A stretch of 64,000 bases of DNA, from assembly GCA_948777935.1 (NCBI GenBank), contig CAQDYY010000001.1, positions 404,930 to 468,929 on the forward strand. Direction: 5' to 3'. Position numbers and translations under genes: made by a program. Position 1 is the stretch's first letter; each line of letters opens with the position of its first letter. The notes beneath the pieces were generated by a model, which saw only the letters and a list, made by a program, of their open reading frames with translations, had not been told where the DNA came from and did not search any database. Shown here one piece after another: positions 4,443 through 63,306 of this stretch. Source of the DNA: an uncultured Clostridia bacterium (GTDB lineage Bacteria; Bacillota; Clostridia; TANB77; CAG-508).

Positions 4443-7065
4443 TTGGGTACAAATATAAAATTAGAAGAGATTCATTTAGACGAAAAATATGGTGAACAAG
4501 CTCTTTTACCTCCAAATGAGTTTTTATCTAAGATGAATTTTTTAAGTGATGGTCTTAGTAGTGATGATGCTATTTCTCTTCTTCATAAAAATGGTTTAAA
4601 TGAATTAAAACAAGCTCGTGAAAAAAAATGGTACAATTACTTGTTTTCAAGCTTATTTAGTCCTTTTAATATTATATTATTATTAATATCTTTGGTACTT
4701 ATTTATACTGATGTTATATTAGCTGATACTCCAAGCTATGCAAATATTGTAGTTATTTTAGTTTTAGTAACAGCAAGTACTCTTCTTGAATTTGTACAAG
4801 AATATCGTTCAAATAAAGCTGCTTTAAAACTCGAGAGCCTTGTAGCAACTACCACTACTGTGTTAAGAGATGGTAAAAAAATACGGTATACCTATAAAAG
4901 AAGTGGTAATTGGAGATGTTGTTTCTTTATCCGCTGGAGACATGATACCTGCAGATATTCGCATTATAGAAGAAAAGGATTTGCATGTTGGTCAGTCTAC
5001 TCTTACTGGTGAATCTGAACCAGTAAAAAAGCTATCTACATCTACTCTTTCATCTATAAATAATATAAAAGATGTATCAGATTTAGATACTATATGTTTT
5101 ATGGGTACAAATGTAGTAAGTGGAAGTGCTAAAGGTGTTGTTATAAAAACTGCGAATGATACTTATTTTGGTAAAATTGCAGGAGTTTTAGAACATGGAA
5201 AGCCAAAAACTGCTTTTCAAAAAGGAATTGAAAATATTAGTAAACTCCTAATTCGTTTTATGTTAGTTATGATTCCTATTACTTTTTTAGTTAATGTTTG
5301 GAAACATAGTGTTCTAATTACATTTACATTTTCAGTTGCTATTGCAATTGGAATTACACCTCTTTTACTACCTGTTATTCTTTCTTCTTCACTTGCAAAA
5401 GGTGCAATTCGTATGTCTAAGAAGAAAACCATTGTAAAAAAGATGGATTCTATACAAAGTTTTGGTGCTATGAATATACTTTGTACTGATAAAACTGGAA
5501 CTCTAACAAAAGATGAAATTGTTCTTCAAAAATATTTAGATATAAACGGAAATGAAAATTATGGTGTTCTAAAACATGCCTTTTTAAATGCATATTTTCA
5601 AACTGGCTTAAAAGGTAATATTGATACAGCGATTATTGATAAAGCAAATGAAATGGATTTGACTAATATATCTACTAACTATAAAAAAATTGATGAAATA
5701 CCTTTTGATTTTTCAAGACGTAGATTATCTGTTATTGTATCTGACGGAACAAAAACACAGCTTATTACTAAAGGTGCTGTAGAAGAAATTTTATCAATTT
5801 GTACTCTTGTTTATGATAATGGAAATGTAACTGAAATTACACCTAAAATAAAAGAAAATATACGAAACTTTACTAAAAATCTAAATTCTGATGGTTTACG
5901 TGTTATTGCAGTATGCCAAAAAAATGATATTTCTGATATTAGTAATTTTTCTGTTAAAGATGAATCTAAAATGGTGTTAATGGGATTTATTGGCTTTTTA
6001 GACCCACCAAAAGAAAGTGCAAAACAAGCTATTGATAGGTTAAATGAAAAAGGAATTCGTGTTATTGTATTAACTGGAGATAATGAATATGTAACTAAAT
6101 GTATTTGTGATAAAGTTGGTATTAATTCAGCAAGAATCATATCTGGTAATAAAATAAGTAAGTTATCTGATATGGCTTTACTTCGTTTACTTTATGATAC
6201 TAATATTTTTGTAAAATTAAGCCCTATTGAAAAGGCTAGAATTGTAAGGTTATTAAAAGAAGCTGGAAATGTTGTAGGTTATATGGGTGATGGAATTAAT
6301 GATAGCCCTTCTCTTACTAATGCTGATGTTGGTATTTCTGTAGATACTGCTGTTGATATTGCAAAGGAAACTTCTGATATTATTTTATTAGAAAAGGATT
6401 TGAATGTTTTATTAGATGGTGCAATTGAAGGTAGAAAAACTTTTGCTAATTTACTAAAATATATCAAAATGGCTGTTAGTTTTAACTTTGGTGAGGTATT
6501 ATCTGTACTAATTGCAAGTATTGTACTTCCATTTTTGCCTATTACCCCAATCCAATTACTAGTACAAAGTTTGCTTTATGATTTTGGGCAATTATCTCTT
6601 CCTTTTGATAATGTAGATGCAGAATATGTAACCAAACCTAGAAAGTGGAATTTGAAAGATTTACGAAATTTTATGTTTTTTATGGGACCAACTAGTTCTA
6701 TCTTCGATTTAATGGTATTTGCTTCTTTATGGTTTGGCTTTGGTTTAAGGCTACCCCAAAGTGCTCTTTTCCAAACTATTTGGTTTAGTTATGGGGTTGT
6801 TTCAAACTTAATTGGTTTACACATTATTAGAACTGCAAAAATGCCATTTGTACAAAGTAATGCTTCTACACCTGTATATGCAACATCCATACTTTTAAGT
6901 ATTGTAGCATTAATTGTTCCTTTTACCTTTATAGGAAAATGGATTGGACTTGTTCCTTTTGCTCCAATTTATTTAGTAGTAATAATTGGCTTTCCAATTC
7001 TTTATTGCTTTATTGCAAGTTTTGTTAAGAAATTGTATATTAAAAAATATGGTGAATGGATATAG
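4443..7065 (+). CDS. mgtA: Mg2+-importing P-type ATPase (MgtA-like); reading frame broken by 1-nt indel in an A7 run near 4874-4880 (two overlapping ORFs 4443-5012 and 4870-7065)
   Basis: N-terminal ORF matches MgtA TM1-2/TVLR region; second ORF has DKTGTLT phosphorylation motif, TGDN, GDGINDSP hinge; frames join across aaaaaaa homopolymer. Confidence 0.8.
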
Positions 7066-45881: not shown

Positions 45882-47159
45882 TTAATTTTTTAGTGCTGTA
45901 ATGGGTACTACAAATACTCCATCTGGTCTTTTATATACTGCATTTGATAGTCCACATATTACACATAAAACTGACGGTGCTTTGCCATTTTCTTTTTCAA
46001 TCGATTCCTTTATACTAGTTAAATTATTTGCTGCTTTTTCAATTTGATTTGCTCCTAATTTTATTTCAAAAGCGCACCAATCTCCATTTTCTAACTCTAT
46101 AATAGAATCAATTTCTCTATTTTGATAATCTTGATAATGATAGCATTTCGCATTAAAAGCACTTGCATATATTTTTAAATCTCTTTCAACCATTGCTTCA
46201 AATAATAATCCAAAAGTCTCTAAATCATTAATTAACTTTTCTTCTGTTAAATTTAGTAAAGCACATGAAATAGATGGGTCTGCAAAATGCCTTTTTTCTG
46301 ATTGTTTTACTCTTATAGAAGAACGTATATTTAGTGAAAATGGTTCATCATTATCTAATAAATATAATTTGTCTAATGCGTTTAAATATGATGCAACTGT
46401 ATCTATATCTATATCTTCATTATCAATTTCTTTAATGTCTCTTTTTACTGTCATATTTGACACTGTTGTACTTTCATTTCTTGCAAGTGATTTTAGTAAT
46501 AATTTCATCTTATGCTTATCTCTATTTATTTTATCTAATCTATATAAATCATCAGTTATAATTAAATCAATATATTCTTTTATAATTTCGCTAGAATCTT
46601 TAGGTGAATAGTCTAAATTACCTGGCCATCCTCCTCTAATTATTAATCTAGCAATATTCCTTAAGTCAACTTCACCTGTTAACTTTTGTTCAATTTTTCC
46701 TTTACATAAGTTTTCTAATGAAATATCTCCTGTCGAATCACCAGATTCAAACAAACTCATAGTTCTTAAATAAATCTTTCCATATCTTCCTGCTCCGCTA
46801 TGTGCTATTCCGCTTCTATTGGGTGTAGAAGATCCAGTTAAAATATATTGGCCTTTTAATCCCGTTTTATCTACATCTGCTCTAATTTCATCCCATAAAT
46901 TTGTAGCTTCCTGCCATTCATCAATTAATTTAGGTTTTTCTCCTTCCAAAATTAACGATGGAGACATTTTTGCTAGTTCTACATTATTAGATTGTTCTCC
47001 AGTAGTATTGTGTAATAATACTTCACTTTTAGAATGATAACGACCAGCCCATGTTTTGCCACAATATTTTGGACCTTCTATACAAACTGCACCAAATAGT
47101 TTTAAATAGTGTTCTATTTTGTCATCTAGAATTCTTCTTTTATAATTAGTTATATCCAT
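45882..47159 (-). CDS. AAA+ ATPase with DUF4143 (AAA_14 family)
   Basis: 425 aa; Walker A GPKYCGKT; C-terminal DUF4143-like region. Confidence 0.7.
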   Translation of the reverse strand: MDITNYKRRILDDKIEHYLKLFGAVCIEGPKYCGKTWAGRYHSKSEVLLHNTTGEQSNNVELAKMSPSLILEGEKPKLIDEWQEATNLWDEIRADVDKTGLKGQYILTGSSTPNRSGIAHSGAGRYGKIYLRTMSLFESGDSTGDISLENLCKGKIEQKLTGEVDLRNIARLIIRGGWPGNLDYSPKDSSEIIKEYIDLIITDDLYRLDKINRDKHKMKLLLKSLARNESTTVSNMTVKRDIKEIDNEDIDIDTVASYLNALDKLYLLDNDEPFSLNIRSSIRVKQSEKRHFADPSISCALLNLTEEKLINDLETFGLLFEAMVERDLKIYASAFNAKCYHYQDYQNREIDSIIELENGDWCAFEIKLGANQIEKAANNLTSIKESIEKENGKAPSVLCVICGLSNAVYKRPDGVFVVPITALKN

Positions 47160-52773: not shown

Positions 52774-53319
52774 TCAAAACATATTAAGATATCTAGCACT
52801 TGATAAAAGTGTATCTACCACTACAATTCCAATTGCAATATTAACAAAAGTTATTTGTGATTTAGTAGGAATTTTCTTTAATAATTTTGCTACTACCTTT
52901 TCCATAAGTGGATGAACCCAGTGAATAAAAGCAAGAGCAATAAATCCCCATGCAAAAGAAAATGATAAGGTAATTCTTCCATTTAGATTCATAAAATGAG
53001 TTGCATAATCCCACCAACGTGCTGAAAATAGTGCTTCTAATGCAAATCCTACAAAATATTCAAAAATTGAAAATACAATTGCAGAATATAAAAATAGTTT
53101 TAATGGGTTAGATTTATATTTTTGTAAACAACTAATTAAAATAACTGCTCCCCACCCATAAATTGGACAAAGTGGTCCATATAAAAAGCCTCTTTTTACA
53201 AAATGACCTAAAGTTCCTATAGCATAAAAGGTCTCTAATAACCAACCAACAAATGCATATATTAAAAAATAAAATGCTAAATACTTAATACTTATTTTCT
53301 TATCCTCTAATTTTTCCAT
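52774..53319 (-). CDS. hydrophobic membrane protein (5-6 TM), function unknown
   Basis: 181 aa ORF, multiple TM segments. Confidence 0.45.
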   Translation of the reverse strand: MEKLEDKKISIKYLAFYFLIYAFVGWLLETFYAIGTLGHFVKRGFLYGPLCPIYGWGAVILISCLQKYKSNPLKLFLYSAIVFSIFEYFVGFALEALFSARWWDYATHFMNLNGRITLSFSFAWGFIALAFIHWVHPLMEKVVAKLLKKIPTKSQITFVNIAIGIVVVDTLLSSARYLNMF

Positions 53320-53471: not shown

Positions 53472-53545
<74 letters not shown>

Positions 53546-53622
53546 GCGCCCTTAGCTCAGTTGGTCAGAGCAACCGGCTCATAACCGGTGGGTCCAAGGT
53601 TCGAATCCTTGAGGGCGCACCA
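53546..53622 (+). tRNA. tRNA with CAU anticodon, most similar to tRNA-Ile2 (lysidine) / elongator Met
   Basis: GCGCCCTTAGCTCAGTTGGTCAGAGC...CGGCTCATAACCG...GGTTCGAATCC..GGGCGCACCA; not initiator-type. Confidence 0.8.
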
Positions 53623-53640
53623 CTTTTTTTAACTAAATAT

Positions 53641-53726
53641 GGACAGGTGGCCGAGTGGCTAAAGGCGGCAGACTGTAAATCTGTTCTCATACGAGTACGA
53701 AGGTTCGAATCCTTCCCTGTCCACCA
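53641..53726 (+). tRNA. tRNA-Tyr (anticodon GUA)
   Basis: Long variable arm, anticodon loop CUGUAAA, GGTTCGAATCC TPsiC, CCA; followed by hairpin terminator 53729-53761. Confidence 0.85.
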
Positions 53727-53839
53727 AAGAAGTAGAAAATATGAGATTCTACTTCTTTTTTATTTATAAGAAACGAAAAATAGAAATGGATTCGAAAAGG
53801 AGGATCAGAAAACAGTCCAGTGGACTGTTTTCCCGACGC

Positions 53840-53867
53840 GGTTCGCCGAATCCTTCCCTGTCCATCA
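53840..53867 (+). repeat. 28-nt duplicate of tRNA-Tyr 3' end (ggttcgccgaatccttccctgtccatca), att-like remnant
   Basis: 26/28 identity to 53699-53726 after a 3-nt insertion; lies 115 bp past the tRNA, before a terminator and the RelA/SpoT-domain gene. Confidence 0.55.
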
Positions 53868-53977
53868 AAAAGCATTGTAGTAACTACCATGCTTTTTTTG
53901 TATTAATGTCCGCTTTTGTTCTACATCTAGACTTTTTATGTTTATATATGGTATAATATCTACAGGAAGTGATATTT

Positions 53978-55081
53978 ATGATTATTAATGAAAGAGTAAA
54001 GCATAATCTATTAACTTGGAATGATGCTGAACCTATATATAAACAATTTGAAAAAAAATGTGAAAAGCTAAGTAAACTTACTGGTTTAATTATAAATCCC
54101 ATAGATTATCAACTTCAGCATCAGCTTCATGTAGCAAACAAAAACTATTTCATGAATTTACAAACTAAATTGTATGAAAGATTATATAAAAAATATCCAA
54201 ATGTGGATTTTGGAATGGCTGGTAGATTAAAATCTCCATTTTCACATTATGAAAAAGTTATTAGAAAATTTGTTGAACAATTTGAAAAAGATGAAACAAG
54301 ACCTGTTTCAATATTAGATGATTATGCTATCAAAATATTTTTAATGCATATAAATTATCCTATTGATAAAATAAGTGTTGATAGTGAAGGAATTTATATT
54401 GATTCTGGAACAAACGAGTTTCGTTTTAGTAATGGTGATTCCTTTGTTTTTGAACACGAAGAAAAATCGCTTAATATTGTCGTAGAAAAAGATGCTAGTA
54501 ACATTTGGATTGACCATACTACACCATATATTTGTACTACTAGAAATGGTAAAGAAATTTCTATACCTTTAATTTTAGCAAAAACTTATAAAAGATCAAC
54601 CAAAGACCATTTAGTTAAATATTGTTATGAATTTCAAAAAGATATAGAAAAATTTTTTAATGCTCTAAAAGATAAAGACAAAACAAATGATAATTTTATT
54701 ACCAAAAAGAAAAAAGATTATATTGATGCACCAAAAGAATCTGGATATTCTTCTTTACAAATGTCTTTCTATTCTGAAAGACGAAATCTAGGAATTGAAT
54801 GCCAAACGAGAACCTATGATATGGAAATATTTAATAACGAAGAACGAGAATATGGATATAAACCTAATGAACATGAACTGTCTCATAATTCCTTTGATAA
54901 TATTTCTCGTTTTGCATTAACAACAAGATTTAAAAATGGAGGTTTTCAAACTTATGATATGTCAGATCCAGAATGTTTTAAACTAATTTTTGGTACTACT
55001 ATGGAAGAATACAGTAAGAAAATGAAACCAACTCTTACACCAAAAGAAGGTACGACAATACAAGACGATAGAGCTAGATAA
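53978..55081 (+). CDS. RelA/SpoT-domain (small alarmone synthetase-like nucleotidyltransferase) protein with ~120-aa internal insertion and C-terminal extension
   Basis: G-loop motif GRLKSPFSHYEKVIRK, DDYAIKIF (cf. DxxGxRxI), then after long insert YIDAPKESGYSSLQM and ECQTRT (cf. EVQIRT); extended -10 TGGTATAAT and AGGAAGTGA RBS. Confidence 0.65.
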   Translation: MIINERVKHNLLTWNDAEPIYKQFEKKCEKLSKLTGLIINPIDYQLQHQLHVANKNYFMNLQTKLYERLYKKYPNVDFGMAGRLKSPFSHYEKVIRKFVEQFEKDETRPVSILDDYAIKIFLMHINYPIDKISVDSEGIYIDSGTNEFRFSNGDSFVFEHEEKSLNIVVEKDASNIWIDHTTPYICTTRNGKEISIPLILAKTYKRSTKDHLVKYCYEFQKDIEKFFNALKDKDKTNDNFITKKKKDYIDAPKESGYSSLQMSFYSERRNLGIECQTRTYDMEIFNNEEREYGYKPNEHELSHNSFDNISRFALTTRFKNGGFQTYDMSDPECFKLIFGTTMEEYSKKMKPTLTPKEGTTIQDDRAR

Positions 55082-55676
55082 CTCTATCGTCTTTTTTCTT
55101 GCTTACTGCAAGTCCATCTCCTACTTCTAAAATTTCAGTTTCTAAATTTGGGTTTTCATTTACTTCTTTTAAATATTCTCTTAAATTTCTTACTGCTGTA
55201 CGTTGTTTATGTTTGTTATAATCACTCATAACATATCCCTTATATAAAACATTATCTGCTAAAATAATTCCACTATTTGCAAGTAGTCGTAATGCATGGC
55301 TTAAAAAGAATGGGTATTTACCTTTTGCTGCATCTATAAAAATCATATCATATTTATCATTTAAAGTTGGTAAAATTTCCACAGCATCTCCAAAATGAAT
55401 ATGTATTTTTTCTTCTACCCCTGCCCTTTTTATATTTTGCCTTGCTTTTTCTACCCTATCTTCTTCTCTTTCTATTGTATCTATATATCCATTTTCTTCT
55501 AAAAACTCTGAAAAGCAAATAGCAGAATAGCCTACTGCTGTTCCTATTTCTAAGATTTTTGTTATTTTTTTGTCTTTTAATAACTCATCAATTCCTTCTA
55601 GTGTATCGTCCATAATAATTGGAATATGTTCATTTAATGCTTCTTCTTTTATTTTTTCTAATTCTTGTTTATTCAT
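55074..55676 (-). CDS. class I SAM-dependent O-methyltransferase (caffeoyl-CoA OMT-like)
   Basis: 200 aa; SAM motif ILEIGTAVGYSA, DMIFIDAAK. Confidence 0.75.
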   Translation of the reverse strand: MNKQELEKIKEEALNEHIPIIMDDTLEGIDELLKDKKITKILEIGTAVGYSAICFSEFLEENGYIDTIEREEDRVEKARQNIKRAGVEEKIHIHFGDAVEILPTLNDKYDMIFIDAAKGKYPFFLSHALRLLANSGIILADNVLYKGYVMSDYNKHKQRTAVRNLREYLKEVNENPNLETEILEVGDGLAVSKKKDDRVI

Positions 55677-61707: not shown

Positions 61708-63306
61708 CTACTTTATTCTATATATATTACATGCATTCATTCCTTGTACATGTTCATATGAAGAAAGCCCTAATGTATCAGTTATTTCTTGTAAGTGTGG
61801 ATTATGTTCTATTCCTCCATTTATAATTACTATTAACCCTTTAGATGTATCTATTTCTTTAAAGATTTCTTCTAGCTTTCCTTTACTAAATTCCTTAACA
61901 TCCATAACATATGAGTTATCTAATATTGTAAATAAATATAAATCATCTAAAAACCTATTTTGACTTGTGTTAAATACATATAAACATGGAACATCGTGTT
62001 CTTTTTCTATAATGTTTACAATTTCTTTTTTGTCTTTATATAAGTAATAGTAATCTATACCACCACCTAAATGCAGATTTGGAAGTATTAGCATAATTAT
62101 AAATATAGCTGATAATATGTTATATGTAGTTCTTTTTGAAAATACTTTTTCAAACATTACTTTTGATAAATAAAATACTCCTATTACCATAAGTGGACAT
62201 ACTGGCATAATATATCTAAGTTCCTGATATGGTGAAATAAGCCCAACAATTGCAAAATATATAATTGTTGGTATAAACATTAGCCAAAATTCTTTATTTT
62301 CAAATTTTAATGTAATCTTCTTGTTTTTTGATAGTTTATATATTGCAACTACTATTCCTGCTAAAGCTAATAATATTAGTACTCCATTAAATGTATTATG
62401 GTTTAAAATAGCTATATATGAACCTAAAGAATTCCACATTTTCTTAATGTCTAATAAGCTAGACATTGCTCCTGTTCCTCTATACCCCATAAACATATGA
62501 ACAAATGAATATGGGAAAATAGCAAGCGATATAACTGCTGAAACTACCATTGTTAAAATATATTTTACCAAGTTTTTCATATTTTTTTCTTTTATAAATT
62601 TTATTACATATATAACAAATAGTACAAATAAGAATACTAAATAGTAGTAATGTGTTAATGAACCTATTATTATAAATATAGACATTATTGCTAAATCTTT
62701 TATTTTTAAGTTTTCTTTTTTCAAATTGATAATATGTAAGTATGATATGATTAATAGGTTTAGCGCATTTAATGCATACATTCTAATATATACTGTTGTA
62801 TCAATAGATGCTAGTGTACAGCCATTTACAAGTACCATAAAAACAGCATATAACTTATTTTTAAATATCTTATTTGAAATAAGGTATATCATAATACTTG
62901 TTAATATAAATATAATAATGTTTAATGTAATTCCTGTCCACTTTGAAAATGAGTCTACTGTAAAGCTTGCAGCTATTCTTAATAGTAAATAATAAAATGG
63001 TGGATGTACGTCATTTTTCTGGTTTTCATATACTGGTGTAAAATTTAGTGCTTCTTCGCTCGATATAGATAAATAATCGTAGTAATATTCTTTTTCGTGC
63101 CAATTGTTATAAAAGTCTTCATTATTCATAATATCAACTTTGTCATAATTCATTAGTCCATATGAATACCCTTCATCCATATGTAAATATGCTTTATCTA
63201 TTCCGTATTTAATACGTATTCCTACTTGTAAAAGTATAATAACTACCAATAGAATGATTAATACTTTGTTTTGGTTGTTTTTTATAAATTCCTTTATTTT
63301 CTCCAT
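61708..63306 (-). CDS. GT-C family membrane glycosyltransferase (GT39/GT83, ArnT/PMT-like)
   Basis: 532 aa, N-terminal DE motif (HMDEGYSY), ~11 TM segments, C-terminal soluble domain. Confidence 0.6.
   Translation of the reverse strand: MEKIKEFIKNNQNKVLIILLVVIILLQVGIRIKYGIDKAYLHMDEGYSYGLMNYDKVDIMNNEDFYNNWHEKEYYYDYLSISSEEALNFTPVYENQKNDVHPPFYYLLLRIAASFTVDSFSKWTGITLNIIIFILTSIMIYLISNKIFKNKLYAVFMVLVNGCTLASIDTTVYIRMYALNALNLLIISYLHIINLKKENLKIKDLAIMSIFIIIGSLTHYYYLVFLFVLFVIYVIKFIKEKNMKNLVKYILTMVVSAVISLAIFPYSFVHMFMGYRGTGAMSSLLDIKKMWNSLGSYIAILNHNTFNGVLILLALAGIVVAIYKLSKNKKITLKFENKEFWLMFIPTIIYFAIVGLISPYQELRYIMPVCPLMVIGVFYLSKVMFEKVFSKRTTYNILSAIFIIMLILPNLHLGGGIDYYYLYKDKKEIVNIIEKEHDVPCLYVFNTSQNRFLDDLYLFTILDNSYVMDVKEFSKGKLEEIFKEIDTSKGLIVIINGGIEHNPHLQEITDTLGLSSYEHVQGMNACNIYRIK

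Follow-up and report, generated by a model that had tools for sequence, protein, structure and literature searches.

RelA/SpoT homolog (RSH) enzymes are classed largely by the domains flanking their synthetase (SYNTH) domain, and in CapRel a C-terminal pseudo-zinc-finger domain with a YxxY motif occludes the ATP site. Among the small alarmone synthetases (SAS), RelP and RelQ are synthetase-only proteins of 210-230 aa, the defining feature of the toxic SAS (toxSAS) families FaRel, FaRel2, PhRel, and PhRel2 is a conserved operon of two or three genes that includes an antitoxin (Jimmy et al., 2020; PMC7229694), and cloRel constitutes an uncharacterized Firmicutes SAS subgroup (Atkinson et al., 2011; PMC3153485). 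In this study, we analyzed an RSH gene on a stretch of 64,000 nt from the genome of an uncultured Clostridia bacterium (contig CAQDYY010000001.1, positions 404,930-468,929), the whole of which is hereafter called the window. The gene occupies positions 53978-55081 of the plus strand, stop codon included, and encodes a 367-aa protein of SAS type with a single SYNTH domain. Our analyses suggested, with a probability of about 0.55, that this protein is a lineage-restricted small alarmone synthetase into which a regulatory or interaction domain has been inserted, and that it would be an active nucleotide 3'-pyrophosphokinase. A folded domain inside SYNTH is not among the architectures described in the RSH surveys PMC3153485 and PMC7229694.

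The catalytic core was examined first at the level of domain and motif conservation. The Pfam profile RelA_SpoT (PF04607) matched significantly, at 36.1 bits against a cut-off of 27, and no HD/hydrolase domain was found in the Pfam scan of the protein, in line with a preliminary description of the locus that had proposed a divergent, synthetase-only RelA/SpoT protein. The match was confined to residues 217-297, equivalent to profile positions 33-111, and its start at profile position 33 indicates that an insertion separates the N-terminal portion of the domain from the rest. In an alignment of 33 homologs, on which conservation was judged, the residues of GRLKSPFSHYEKVIRK (G82, R83, K85, S89, E92, and K93), of ILDDYAIKIF (D114), of KDYIDAPKESGYSSLQ (K246, D247, Y248, I249, K253, G256, and Y257), and of ECQTRT (E274, Q276, and T279), together with M282, Y294, and K295, were invariant or nearly so, and R83, K85, S89, and K93 were strictly invariant. 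All of these motifs had been quoted correctly in the preliminary description, although its label of G-loop for the first of them was mistaken, as the G-loop is the PKxSGY loop and GRLKS is the ATP-phosphate motif (PMC5794853).

Residue roles were assigned by HMMER alignments to Staphylococcus aureus RelP, read against the roles given by Steinchen et al. (2018; PMC5794853). D114 and E274 correspond to the Mg2+ ligands D107 and E174 of RelP, R83 to the adenine-stacking R78, and K85, S89, K93, and R96 to the phosphate-binding K80, S84, K88, and R91, respectively; P252 corresponds to P146 of the rigid RelP-type G-loop, and Y257, which lies in PKESGY, to the acceptor-stacking Y151. The Mg2+ ligands, the phosphate ligands, and Y257 were invariant even in family members of 23-37% identity, and the earlier statement that the catalytic residues look intact thus held for the Mg-binding D114 and E274 and for the acceptor-stacking Y257. 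Part 1 of the core (residues 73-128; 54194-54361, plus strand), delimited by the RelP alignment, comprises β1 and the next helix, which share the ATP-phosphate motif G82-R83-x-K85-...S89...K93..R96, and β2, which opens at D114. Part 2 (residues 241-296; 54698-54865, plus strand), delimited by Pfam and the RelP alignment, comprises the K-x-K-D-Y-I strand, the G-loop P252 K253 x S255 G256 Y257, the segment E274-x-Q276-x-R278-T279, and a helix.

An AlphaFold2 model calculated from 33 family sequences was confident, with a predicted local distance difference test (pLDDT) of 91 and a predicted template modeling score (pTM) of 0.86. The model starts with four helices (residues 5-72), β1 (76-84), and a helix (87-103) with the R-x-K...S...K motif, continues with a long β2 (116-128) just after D114, nine short strands (131-206), and a helix (209-228), and ends with the KDYI strand (241-247), the G-loop, two strands (260-279), the catalytic helix (280-294), and a C-terminal β-hairpin followed by two helices (305-348). 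This C-terminal extension (residues 297-350 by model secondary structure; 54866-55027, plus strand) carries the motifs VPxYxLTT and ECFxYxYG..Y.K and is common to the insertion-less relatives P0057, P0060, and P0064. The preliminary description had asked whether the C-terminal 70 aa or so and the insertion fold back over the active site as a pseudo-zinc-finger antitoxin domain; in the model the C-terminus is a β-hairpin with two helices that lacks a conserved YxxY, and the insertion folds as a β domain of its own. Three cysteines on three different helices, C28, C216, and C333, were also invariant or nearly so in the family, and C216 was invariant in the short relatives as well; these residues might constitute a structural or a redox/metal site.

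The inserted all-β domain comprises 78 aa (residues 129-206; 54362-54595, plus strand) and is located between β2 and the next helix of the SYNTH fold. In a survey of 150 SAS representatives, the spacing from R-x-K to KDYI was 163 aa in the window protein and 62 aa in RelP/RelQ-like proteins; it was 69-73 aa in the nearest insertion-less relatives P0057, P0060, and P0064 (245-263 aa). Alignment to these short relatives placed the boundaries of the insertion at ...INYP, equivalent to ...VNDD, and at STKDHLVKYCY, equivalent to TSEELCIGACY. The large internal insertion reported in the preliminary description is therefore real, but its size of about 120 aa was an overestimate, the discrete module being of about 78 aa. 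When residues 122-210 were predicted alone from a 26-sequence alignment, the model was again confident (pLDDT 91; pTM 0.81), which argues for an autonomous domain, and on these models the insertion is best described as an orphan β-barrel predicted to fold on its own. Its mean pairwise identity (0.53) is like that of the N- and C-terminal regions and compares with 0.66-0.70 for the catalytic core; it is acidic, with an isoelectric point (pI) of 5.0, and contains the strongly conserved polar motif DKxSVDxEGIYIDSGxxEFR. The insertion begins at the end of a 13-residue strand whose start holds the catalytic Asp, and by this topology it would leave the sheet far from D114 and project away from the active site.

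Comparison with solved structures placed the protein next to RelP and RelQ. In a profile search against PDB, the family matched RelP (6e-11) and RelQ (2e-10) and then the long Rels, and no toxSAS was matched at E ≤ 10; RelP and RelQ were also the best Foldseek matches. Like them, the protein is a synthetase-only RSH of the same fold without an antitoxin partner; it matches them exactly in the phosphate-binding R-x-K..S..K..R, the KRKDYI strand, the Mg Asp/Glu, and the G-loop Tyr, and its G-loop has the RelP-type proline. However, at 367 aa it is far longer than RelP/RelQ, as had been noted previously, and it differs in the β-barrel after β2, in the extra C-terminal β-hairpin and two helices, and in two residues, Arg112 and His190, which are strictly conserved in RelP/RelQ (PMC5794853) and are replaced here by Lys119 and Arg290. 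Scores against the NCBIfam equivalog NF053588 (GTPPhKinYjbM) were 20.7 bits for the window protein and 15.7-23.7 bits for the insertion-less relatives, whereas the cut-off is 320. Orthology to RelQ/RelP was rejected, as these scores are far under the cut-off and the architecture and two ATP contacts differ. In the preliminary description, clustering with RelQ/RelP orthologs present at the same locus in related genomes had been named as an outcome that would refute its proposal; the locus is indeed conserved, but for the gene's own family, and clustering with RelQ/RelP was not seen.

Similarity to the toxSAS is limited to a SYNTH-only architecture with the conserved Mg-Asp and stacking Tyr, while the antitoxin operon that defines toxSAS is absent here and in every relative. 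The earlier proposal of a toxSAS or a fused toxin-antitoxin protein was not supported, the points against it being the missing antitoxin, the missing toxSAS match, the fixed housekeeping context, and the lack of phage or plasmid homologs described below. With cloRel, the family shares the status of a Firmicutes-restricted SAS subgroup distinct from RelP/RelQ, but no domain insertion has been described for cloRel (PMC3153485); the broader clade of 245-263-aa short forms might be cloRel, the two having been compared by description only. In addition, many matches of 410-460 aa (P0056, P0061, P0067, P0070, and others) consisted of two RelQ/RelP-like SYNTH domains in tandem, as in the P0056 alignment.

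The family is narrow in distribution. It comprised 48 clusters at 90% identity, of 352-381 aa and all annotated as hypothetical, and every cluster came from metagenomes or metagenome-assembled genomes named 'Clostridia bacterium' or 'uncultured Clostridium sp.' Seven clusters were found at E ≤ 1e-30 among 1.84 billion representatives, and at least 8 of 185,579 GTDB species representatives carried the family, a lower bound from a pattern-based scan. The metagenome-assembled genomes concerned include GCA_948827495.1, GCA_948630815.1, and GCA_949948835.1, in the last of which the slot described below is empty. The relatives on long contigs were all alike in their gene order, with a CmpB-like membrane protein (plus strand), the RSH (plus), a Methyltransf_3/YrrM-like O-methyltransferase (minus), and BipA (minus), beyond which lie an acyltransferase, a cytidylate kinase, and an Asp23-like gene. 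BipA is absent from the locus in L027/L028. In the window, cmpB is inverted (52774-53319, minus strand), a tRNA operon lies between cmpB and the RSH gene, and the remaining genes are core machinery, including IF-2, NusA, RimP, Upp, a permease, BipA, Cmk, a PlsC-like protein, and thiamin pyrophosphokinase. No second RSH gene was found in the 64 kb, no integrase, phage, or other mobile-element gene was found in the 24 kb inspected, and tblastn of the protein against 50,697 phage and 72,556 plasmid records gave no match. A phage or plasmid origin was therefore rejected. An antitoxin-like partner was likewise found neither in the window nor in any relative, the neighbors being cmpB, the methyltransferase, and bipA. 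These results showed that the RSH gene is chromosomal and vertically inherited in a fixed slot of a low-GC lineage of uncultured gut Clostridia.

The whole protein is under purifying selection, as the ratio of nonsynonymous to synonymous substitution rates (dN/dS) was low throughout, the insertion included. For the full gene it was 0.14 against L015 (89% identical) and 0.23 against L018 (77%), and in close pairs it was 0.03-0.14 for the catalytic core (0.03-0.12 for part 2) and 0.20-0.31 for the insertion.

The content of the slot was further compared in an independent sample of the lineage, in which six methyltransferase homologs led to seven loci. Insertion-family members occupy the slot in L026 (368 aa), in L029 and L030 (365 aa, one homolog), and in L027 and L028 (404 aa, two homologs; 4609-5823, minus strand; 23% identity). 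The 404-aa form has a further insertion of about 43 aa inside the G-loop, between PKKLKYS and SLHQS, and keeps the canonical His residues that are replaced in the window protein. L024 instead holds a 288-aa SAS (4641-5507, minus strand) in which the DLLGFRI motif is of canonical form and about 100 aa separate R-x-K from KDY. This SAS has only the catalytic core in common with the insertion family (hhalign, 47 columns), and in L025 the slot is empty (4603-4621), so that cmpB abuts the methyltransferase. The cmpB gene thus persists where the SAS is absent. BipA of these genomes is 94-97% (L024-L026; 96-97% for L024 and L025) and 92% (L029) identical to that of the window, which is about as close as in the other orthologue-bearing genomes. 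The 245-aa insertion-less P0064 occupies this slot in a sister lineage (BipA 82% identical). A variable or empty slot at a fixed location implies that the gene is dispensable and that the content is turning over, and the slot may be a place where SAS genes are exchanged for one another. Such a slot, with three SAS forms or none, may show the pace at which alarmone synthetases are exchanged, and the insertion-less relatives in it allow a natural comparison of SAS with and without the added module, from which its regulatory effect could be judged. In some relatives, defense or toxin-antitoxin genes were observed a few kb or less from the slot, including a Cas12a/Cpf1 fragment, ParE toxins, and ToxN (L022 1-13; L004 177-458 and 8867-9394; L019 12413-12679); none of them adjoins the SAS gene, and none is conserved across genomes.

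Signals around the gene indicated independent expression. The open reading frame reported previously exists on the plus strand and could be read as 370 aa from a GTG at 53969 or as 367 aa from the ATG at 53978, both ending at 55081; as the ATG is the start in all 33 aligned homologs, which open with MII(N/D)E..., it was taken as the start codon. A predicted ribosome-binding site, AGGAAG, lies 8 nt upstream of the ATG (53964-53969, plus strand) and is kept in L015, L016, and L018. The promoter claimed in the preliminary description was recovered by a consensus scan at 53928-53957 (plus strand) as a σA-type TAGACT, an 18-nt spacer, and a TG-extended -10 TATAAT (TATGGTATAAT), and it is kept upstream of orthologs in both the tRNA-linked and the cmpB-linked contexts. 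The promoter block TAGACTTTTTATGTnnAnnTATGnTATAAT is kept upstream of nearly all slot occupants, being seen in L001 (5905-5971), L007, L010, L012, L024, L026, L027, and L029, and in L024 it precedes the unrelated 288-aa SAS. It is better conserved than the coding sequence, with 30 nt identical in L029 against a protein identity of only 59%. In cmpB-linked genomes, the TAGAC of the -35 element is the 3' arm of an inverted repeat, GTCTAGCAAT...ATTGCTAGAC, with a T-run, which could be the cmpB terminator or an operator. In tRNA-linked genomes only the TAGAC arm of this repeat remains, which places the rearrangement breakpoint inside the cmpB-side hairpin. Downstream, the RSH and methyltransferase genes are convergent, with an 8-nt tail-to-tail overlap, and a terminator scan detected a hairpin common to both (55062-55093), an analogous hairpin being present in L001. 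A co-oriented small partner gene is absent from the window, as the earlier designation of a solo unit implied, and from these signals the gene is predicted to be an autonomous, strongly promoted single-gene unit in both contexts, ending at the shared hairpin.

Taken together, the complete catalytic apparatus, the position of RelP, RelQ, and Rel as nearest among solved structures, the purifying selection, the strong conserved promoter without a partner gene, the housekeeping neighborhood, and the acidic to neutral proteins argue for a lineage-restricted alarmone synthetase. Such an enzyme would transfer the β,γ-pyrophosphate of ATP to the 3'-OH of a purine nucleotide, and the acceptor would most likely be GDP, GTP, or GMP, giving (pp)pGpp. 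Since the inserted domain is predicted to leave the sheet at the end of β2 distal to the catalytic Asp, it would more probably be a regulatory module that binds a ligand or a partner than a part of the active site.

Several points weigh against this interpretation. First, the protein is not a RelQ/RelP ortholog, and two ATP contacts of RelP are changed, K119 standing in place of R112, the second adenine-stacking Arg, and R290 in place of H190, a ribose contact; two neighbors of the G-loop are changed as well (S255 for N149 and Q261 for H155). Second, the Mg-Asp and the stacking Tyr are common to pyrophosphokinases that produce (p)ppGpp or (pp)pApp or that modify the tRNA CCA end (Kurata et al., 10.1101/2021.04.30.441581), so the acceptor is not fixed by sequence. 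Third, the RSH gene is the fastest-evolving gene of its neighborhood: against L018, BipA is 99% and the methyltransferase 94% identical but the RSH protein only 77%, and across seven genomes its dN exceeded that of the methyltransferase 2.5-3.7-fold and that of cmpB 1.1-1.8-fold. Fourth, the slot varies among close relatives between insertion forms of 365-404 aa, a 288-aa SAS, and no SAS, and such turnover is not typical of an essential housekeeping enzyme. The single fixed location, on the other hand, is also unlike the multi-context, horizontally scattered pattern of a mobile toxin.

The changed contacts raise the alternative of a neofunctionalized pyrophosphokinase, which would use another donor or acceptor, for example adenine nucleotides to give (pp)pApp, as a normal physiological signal. 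The fixed differences from RelP, RelQ, and Rel at substrate contacts (K119, S255, Q261, and R290), the separation of the clade from RelP/RelQ, and the variation of the G-loop within the family, with its insertion of about 43 aa in L027, are all consistent with a shift of substrate. Nevertheless, K-x-K-D-Y-I and PKxxGY are RelP-like, and the canonical His residues are retained in L027, which among the members with the insertion is the most divergent, as well as in the 245-aa relatives, which indicates that the substitutions are neither ancestral to the insertion nor coupled to it. Furthermore, we know of no sequence rule that predicts acceptor choice, a point that we counted against this alternative, and we consider a changed substrate doubtful.

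The alarmone-synthetase interpretation also has to be weighed against a single-gene, autoinhibited toxic SAS resembling CapRel, a pyrophosphokinase that would act on the tRNA CCA end or deplete ATP and thereby arrest growth; the inserted β-barrel and/or the C-terminal extension would restrain it and would sense, for example, phage proteins, and its chromosomal slot would be a variable one. Like CapRel(SJ46), the protein is encoded as a single-gene unit and unites a SYNTH core and additional non-catalytic parts in one polypeptide, the lengths of the two being similar. The extra domains without known function, the fast evolution relative to the neighborhood, the presence/absence variation of the slot with a different SAS type in close relatives, and the strong promotion of a gene standing alone would all fit such a toxin, and there was a weak match to the PADLOC single-gene candidate PDC-S33. 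This match, however, was limited to the catalytic core (positions 107-168 of 349). CapRel(SJ46) itself showed no sequence-level similarity in the PDB profile search at E ≤ 10, and its added module is a C-terminal domain rather than an internal insertion; the C-terminal extension of the present family occurs also in the plain 245-aa relatives and has no conserved YxxY, and the insertion, by the topology of the model, would exit β2 far from D114. In addition, the genomic context is a single, conserved housekeeping neighborhood without phage or plasmid relatives, and selection in close pairs is purifying, not diversifying. As to charge, the tRNA-binding surface of FaRel2 is basic (10.1101/2021.04.30.441581), whereas the pI computed from bulk charge is 7.1 for the window protein and 5.3-6.5 for other family members, and the insertion is acidic too. 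On balance, an autoinhibited toxin appears unlikely.

A wider version, in which the slot between cmpB and the methyltransferase houses single-gene, self-restrained pyrophosphokinase effectors and the inserted barrel is a sensor that releases growth arrest, is rather improbable in our judgment. If true, it would represent a chromosomal immunity or stress switch of CapRel type built by internal insertion instead of C-terminal fusion, and together with the G-loop insertion in one branch it would explain the fast evolution, the replacement of one SAS by another, and the loss among close relatives.

A further alternative to an active alarmone synthetase is a pseudoenzyme, that is, a weakened or inactive SYNTH domain acting as a nucleotide-binding regulator or scaffold. 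The replacement of the Arg112 equivalent by Lys (Thr in one member) and of the His190 equivalent by Arg, as well as the fast evolution and the loss of the gene in some relatives, could be read in this way. Yet in members of as little as 23% identity neither the two Mg2+ ligands nor any phosphate ligand nor the acceptor Tyr has changed, and dN/dS within the protein is lowest for the catalytic core, which makes a loss of catalysis very unlikely.

The preliminary description had also linked the gene to the neighboring tRNA operon, in which a copy of the tRNA-Tyr 3' end is duplicated. Three tRNA genes are located at 53472-53726, encoding Gly-TCC, a tRNA with a CAT anticodon (Met according to ARAGORN), and Tyr-GTA; the middle one (53546-53622) has a paired 1:72 end and is therefore not an initiator, and could be Ile2, which carries lysidine, rather than Met; Ile was the name given to it in the preliminary description. 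The 28-nt copy is real and lies at 53840-53867 (plus strand), where a pattern search and alignment to relatives identified it as the remnant of a former tRNA-Tyr 3' end in which TCA stands in place of CCA and 2 nt have been inserted; it has an 18-nt exact core at 53847-53864, and 100 shuffles gave no match. A decayed tandem tRNA-Tyr copy was rejected, because only the last 28 nt or so are tRNA-Tyr-like, and the score of the 5' portion is no better than that of shuffled sequence. Directly after the remnant comes the ancestral tRNA-Tyr terminator (53871-53899). The intact tRNA-Tyr (53641-53726) has a different terminator, beyond which some 110 nt of unrelated sequence follow; a segment of some 140 nt (53727-53867) thus consists of a new 3' flank of tRNA-Tyr, which has a terminator hairpin of its own (about 53730-53762), and filler. 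In L015/L016 (89% identity) and L018 (77%), an intact tRNA-Tyr, the terminator (AAAAAGCATTGTAG...TGCTTTTTT), the same promoter, and the gene follow each other without duplication, and L018 also has the Gly and CAT tRNAs upstream. This layout, together with the remnant followed by the ancestral terminator, indicates that the segment at 53727-53867 is an insertion into the 3' end of tRNA-Tyr, and it may be the residue of an integration/excision event without cargo. With up to 3 mismatches allowed, the 64-kb window contained no second att copy downstream of the gene, and an Rfam search (E ≤ 1) between the tRNAs and the gene returned only the three tRNAs and sub-threshold noise.

That the RSH gene is cargo of an integrative element inserted at tRNA-Tyr is hardly credible and was rejected: the duplication is real and, as at att sites, involves the 3' end only, but the two repeats (53702-53726 and 53840-53867) bracket only about 120 nt without an open reading frame of note, the gene lies to the right of both, scar-free close relatives already carry it with its promoter after tRNA-Tyr, more distant orthologs at 47-61% identity have no tRNA within 6 kb, and no integrase was found in the 24 kb. 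By these comparisons the gene lies outside the scar and predates it. The tRNA operon and the duplicated tRNA-Tyr end constitute a sub-lineage-specific rearrangement, which took the place of the upstream cmpB terminator and was not the source of the gene, and the inference from a tRNA integration scar to a mobile toxin, plausible as it looked, is wrong at this locus.

Other genes of the region are mentioned briefly. The convergent neighbor (55074-55676, minus strand) is a YrrM/TrmR-like Methyltransf_3 O-methyltransferase, one source naming it 'predicted O-methyltransferase YrrM', and in relatives a peptidase-U32 gene lies near it (L001 3907-5136; L024 6438-7667). The two genes presumably resemble the tRNA ho5U/mo5U modification genes trmR and trhP of Bacillus. 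An ATPase with AAA_14 and DUF4143 domains is encoded between rimP and upp (45882-47159, minus strand), amid core translation genes, and a 532-aa open reading frame at 61708-63306 (minus strand) had no Pfam match at E ≤ 1e-5.

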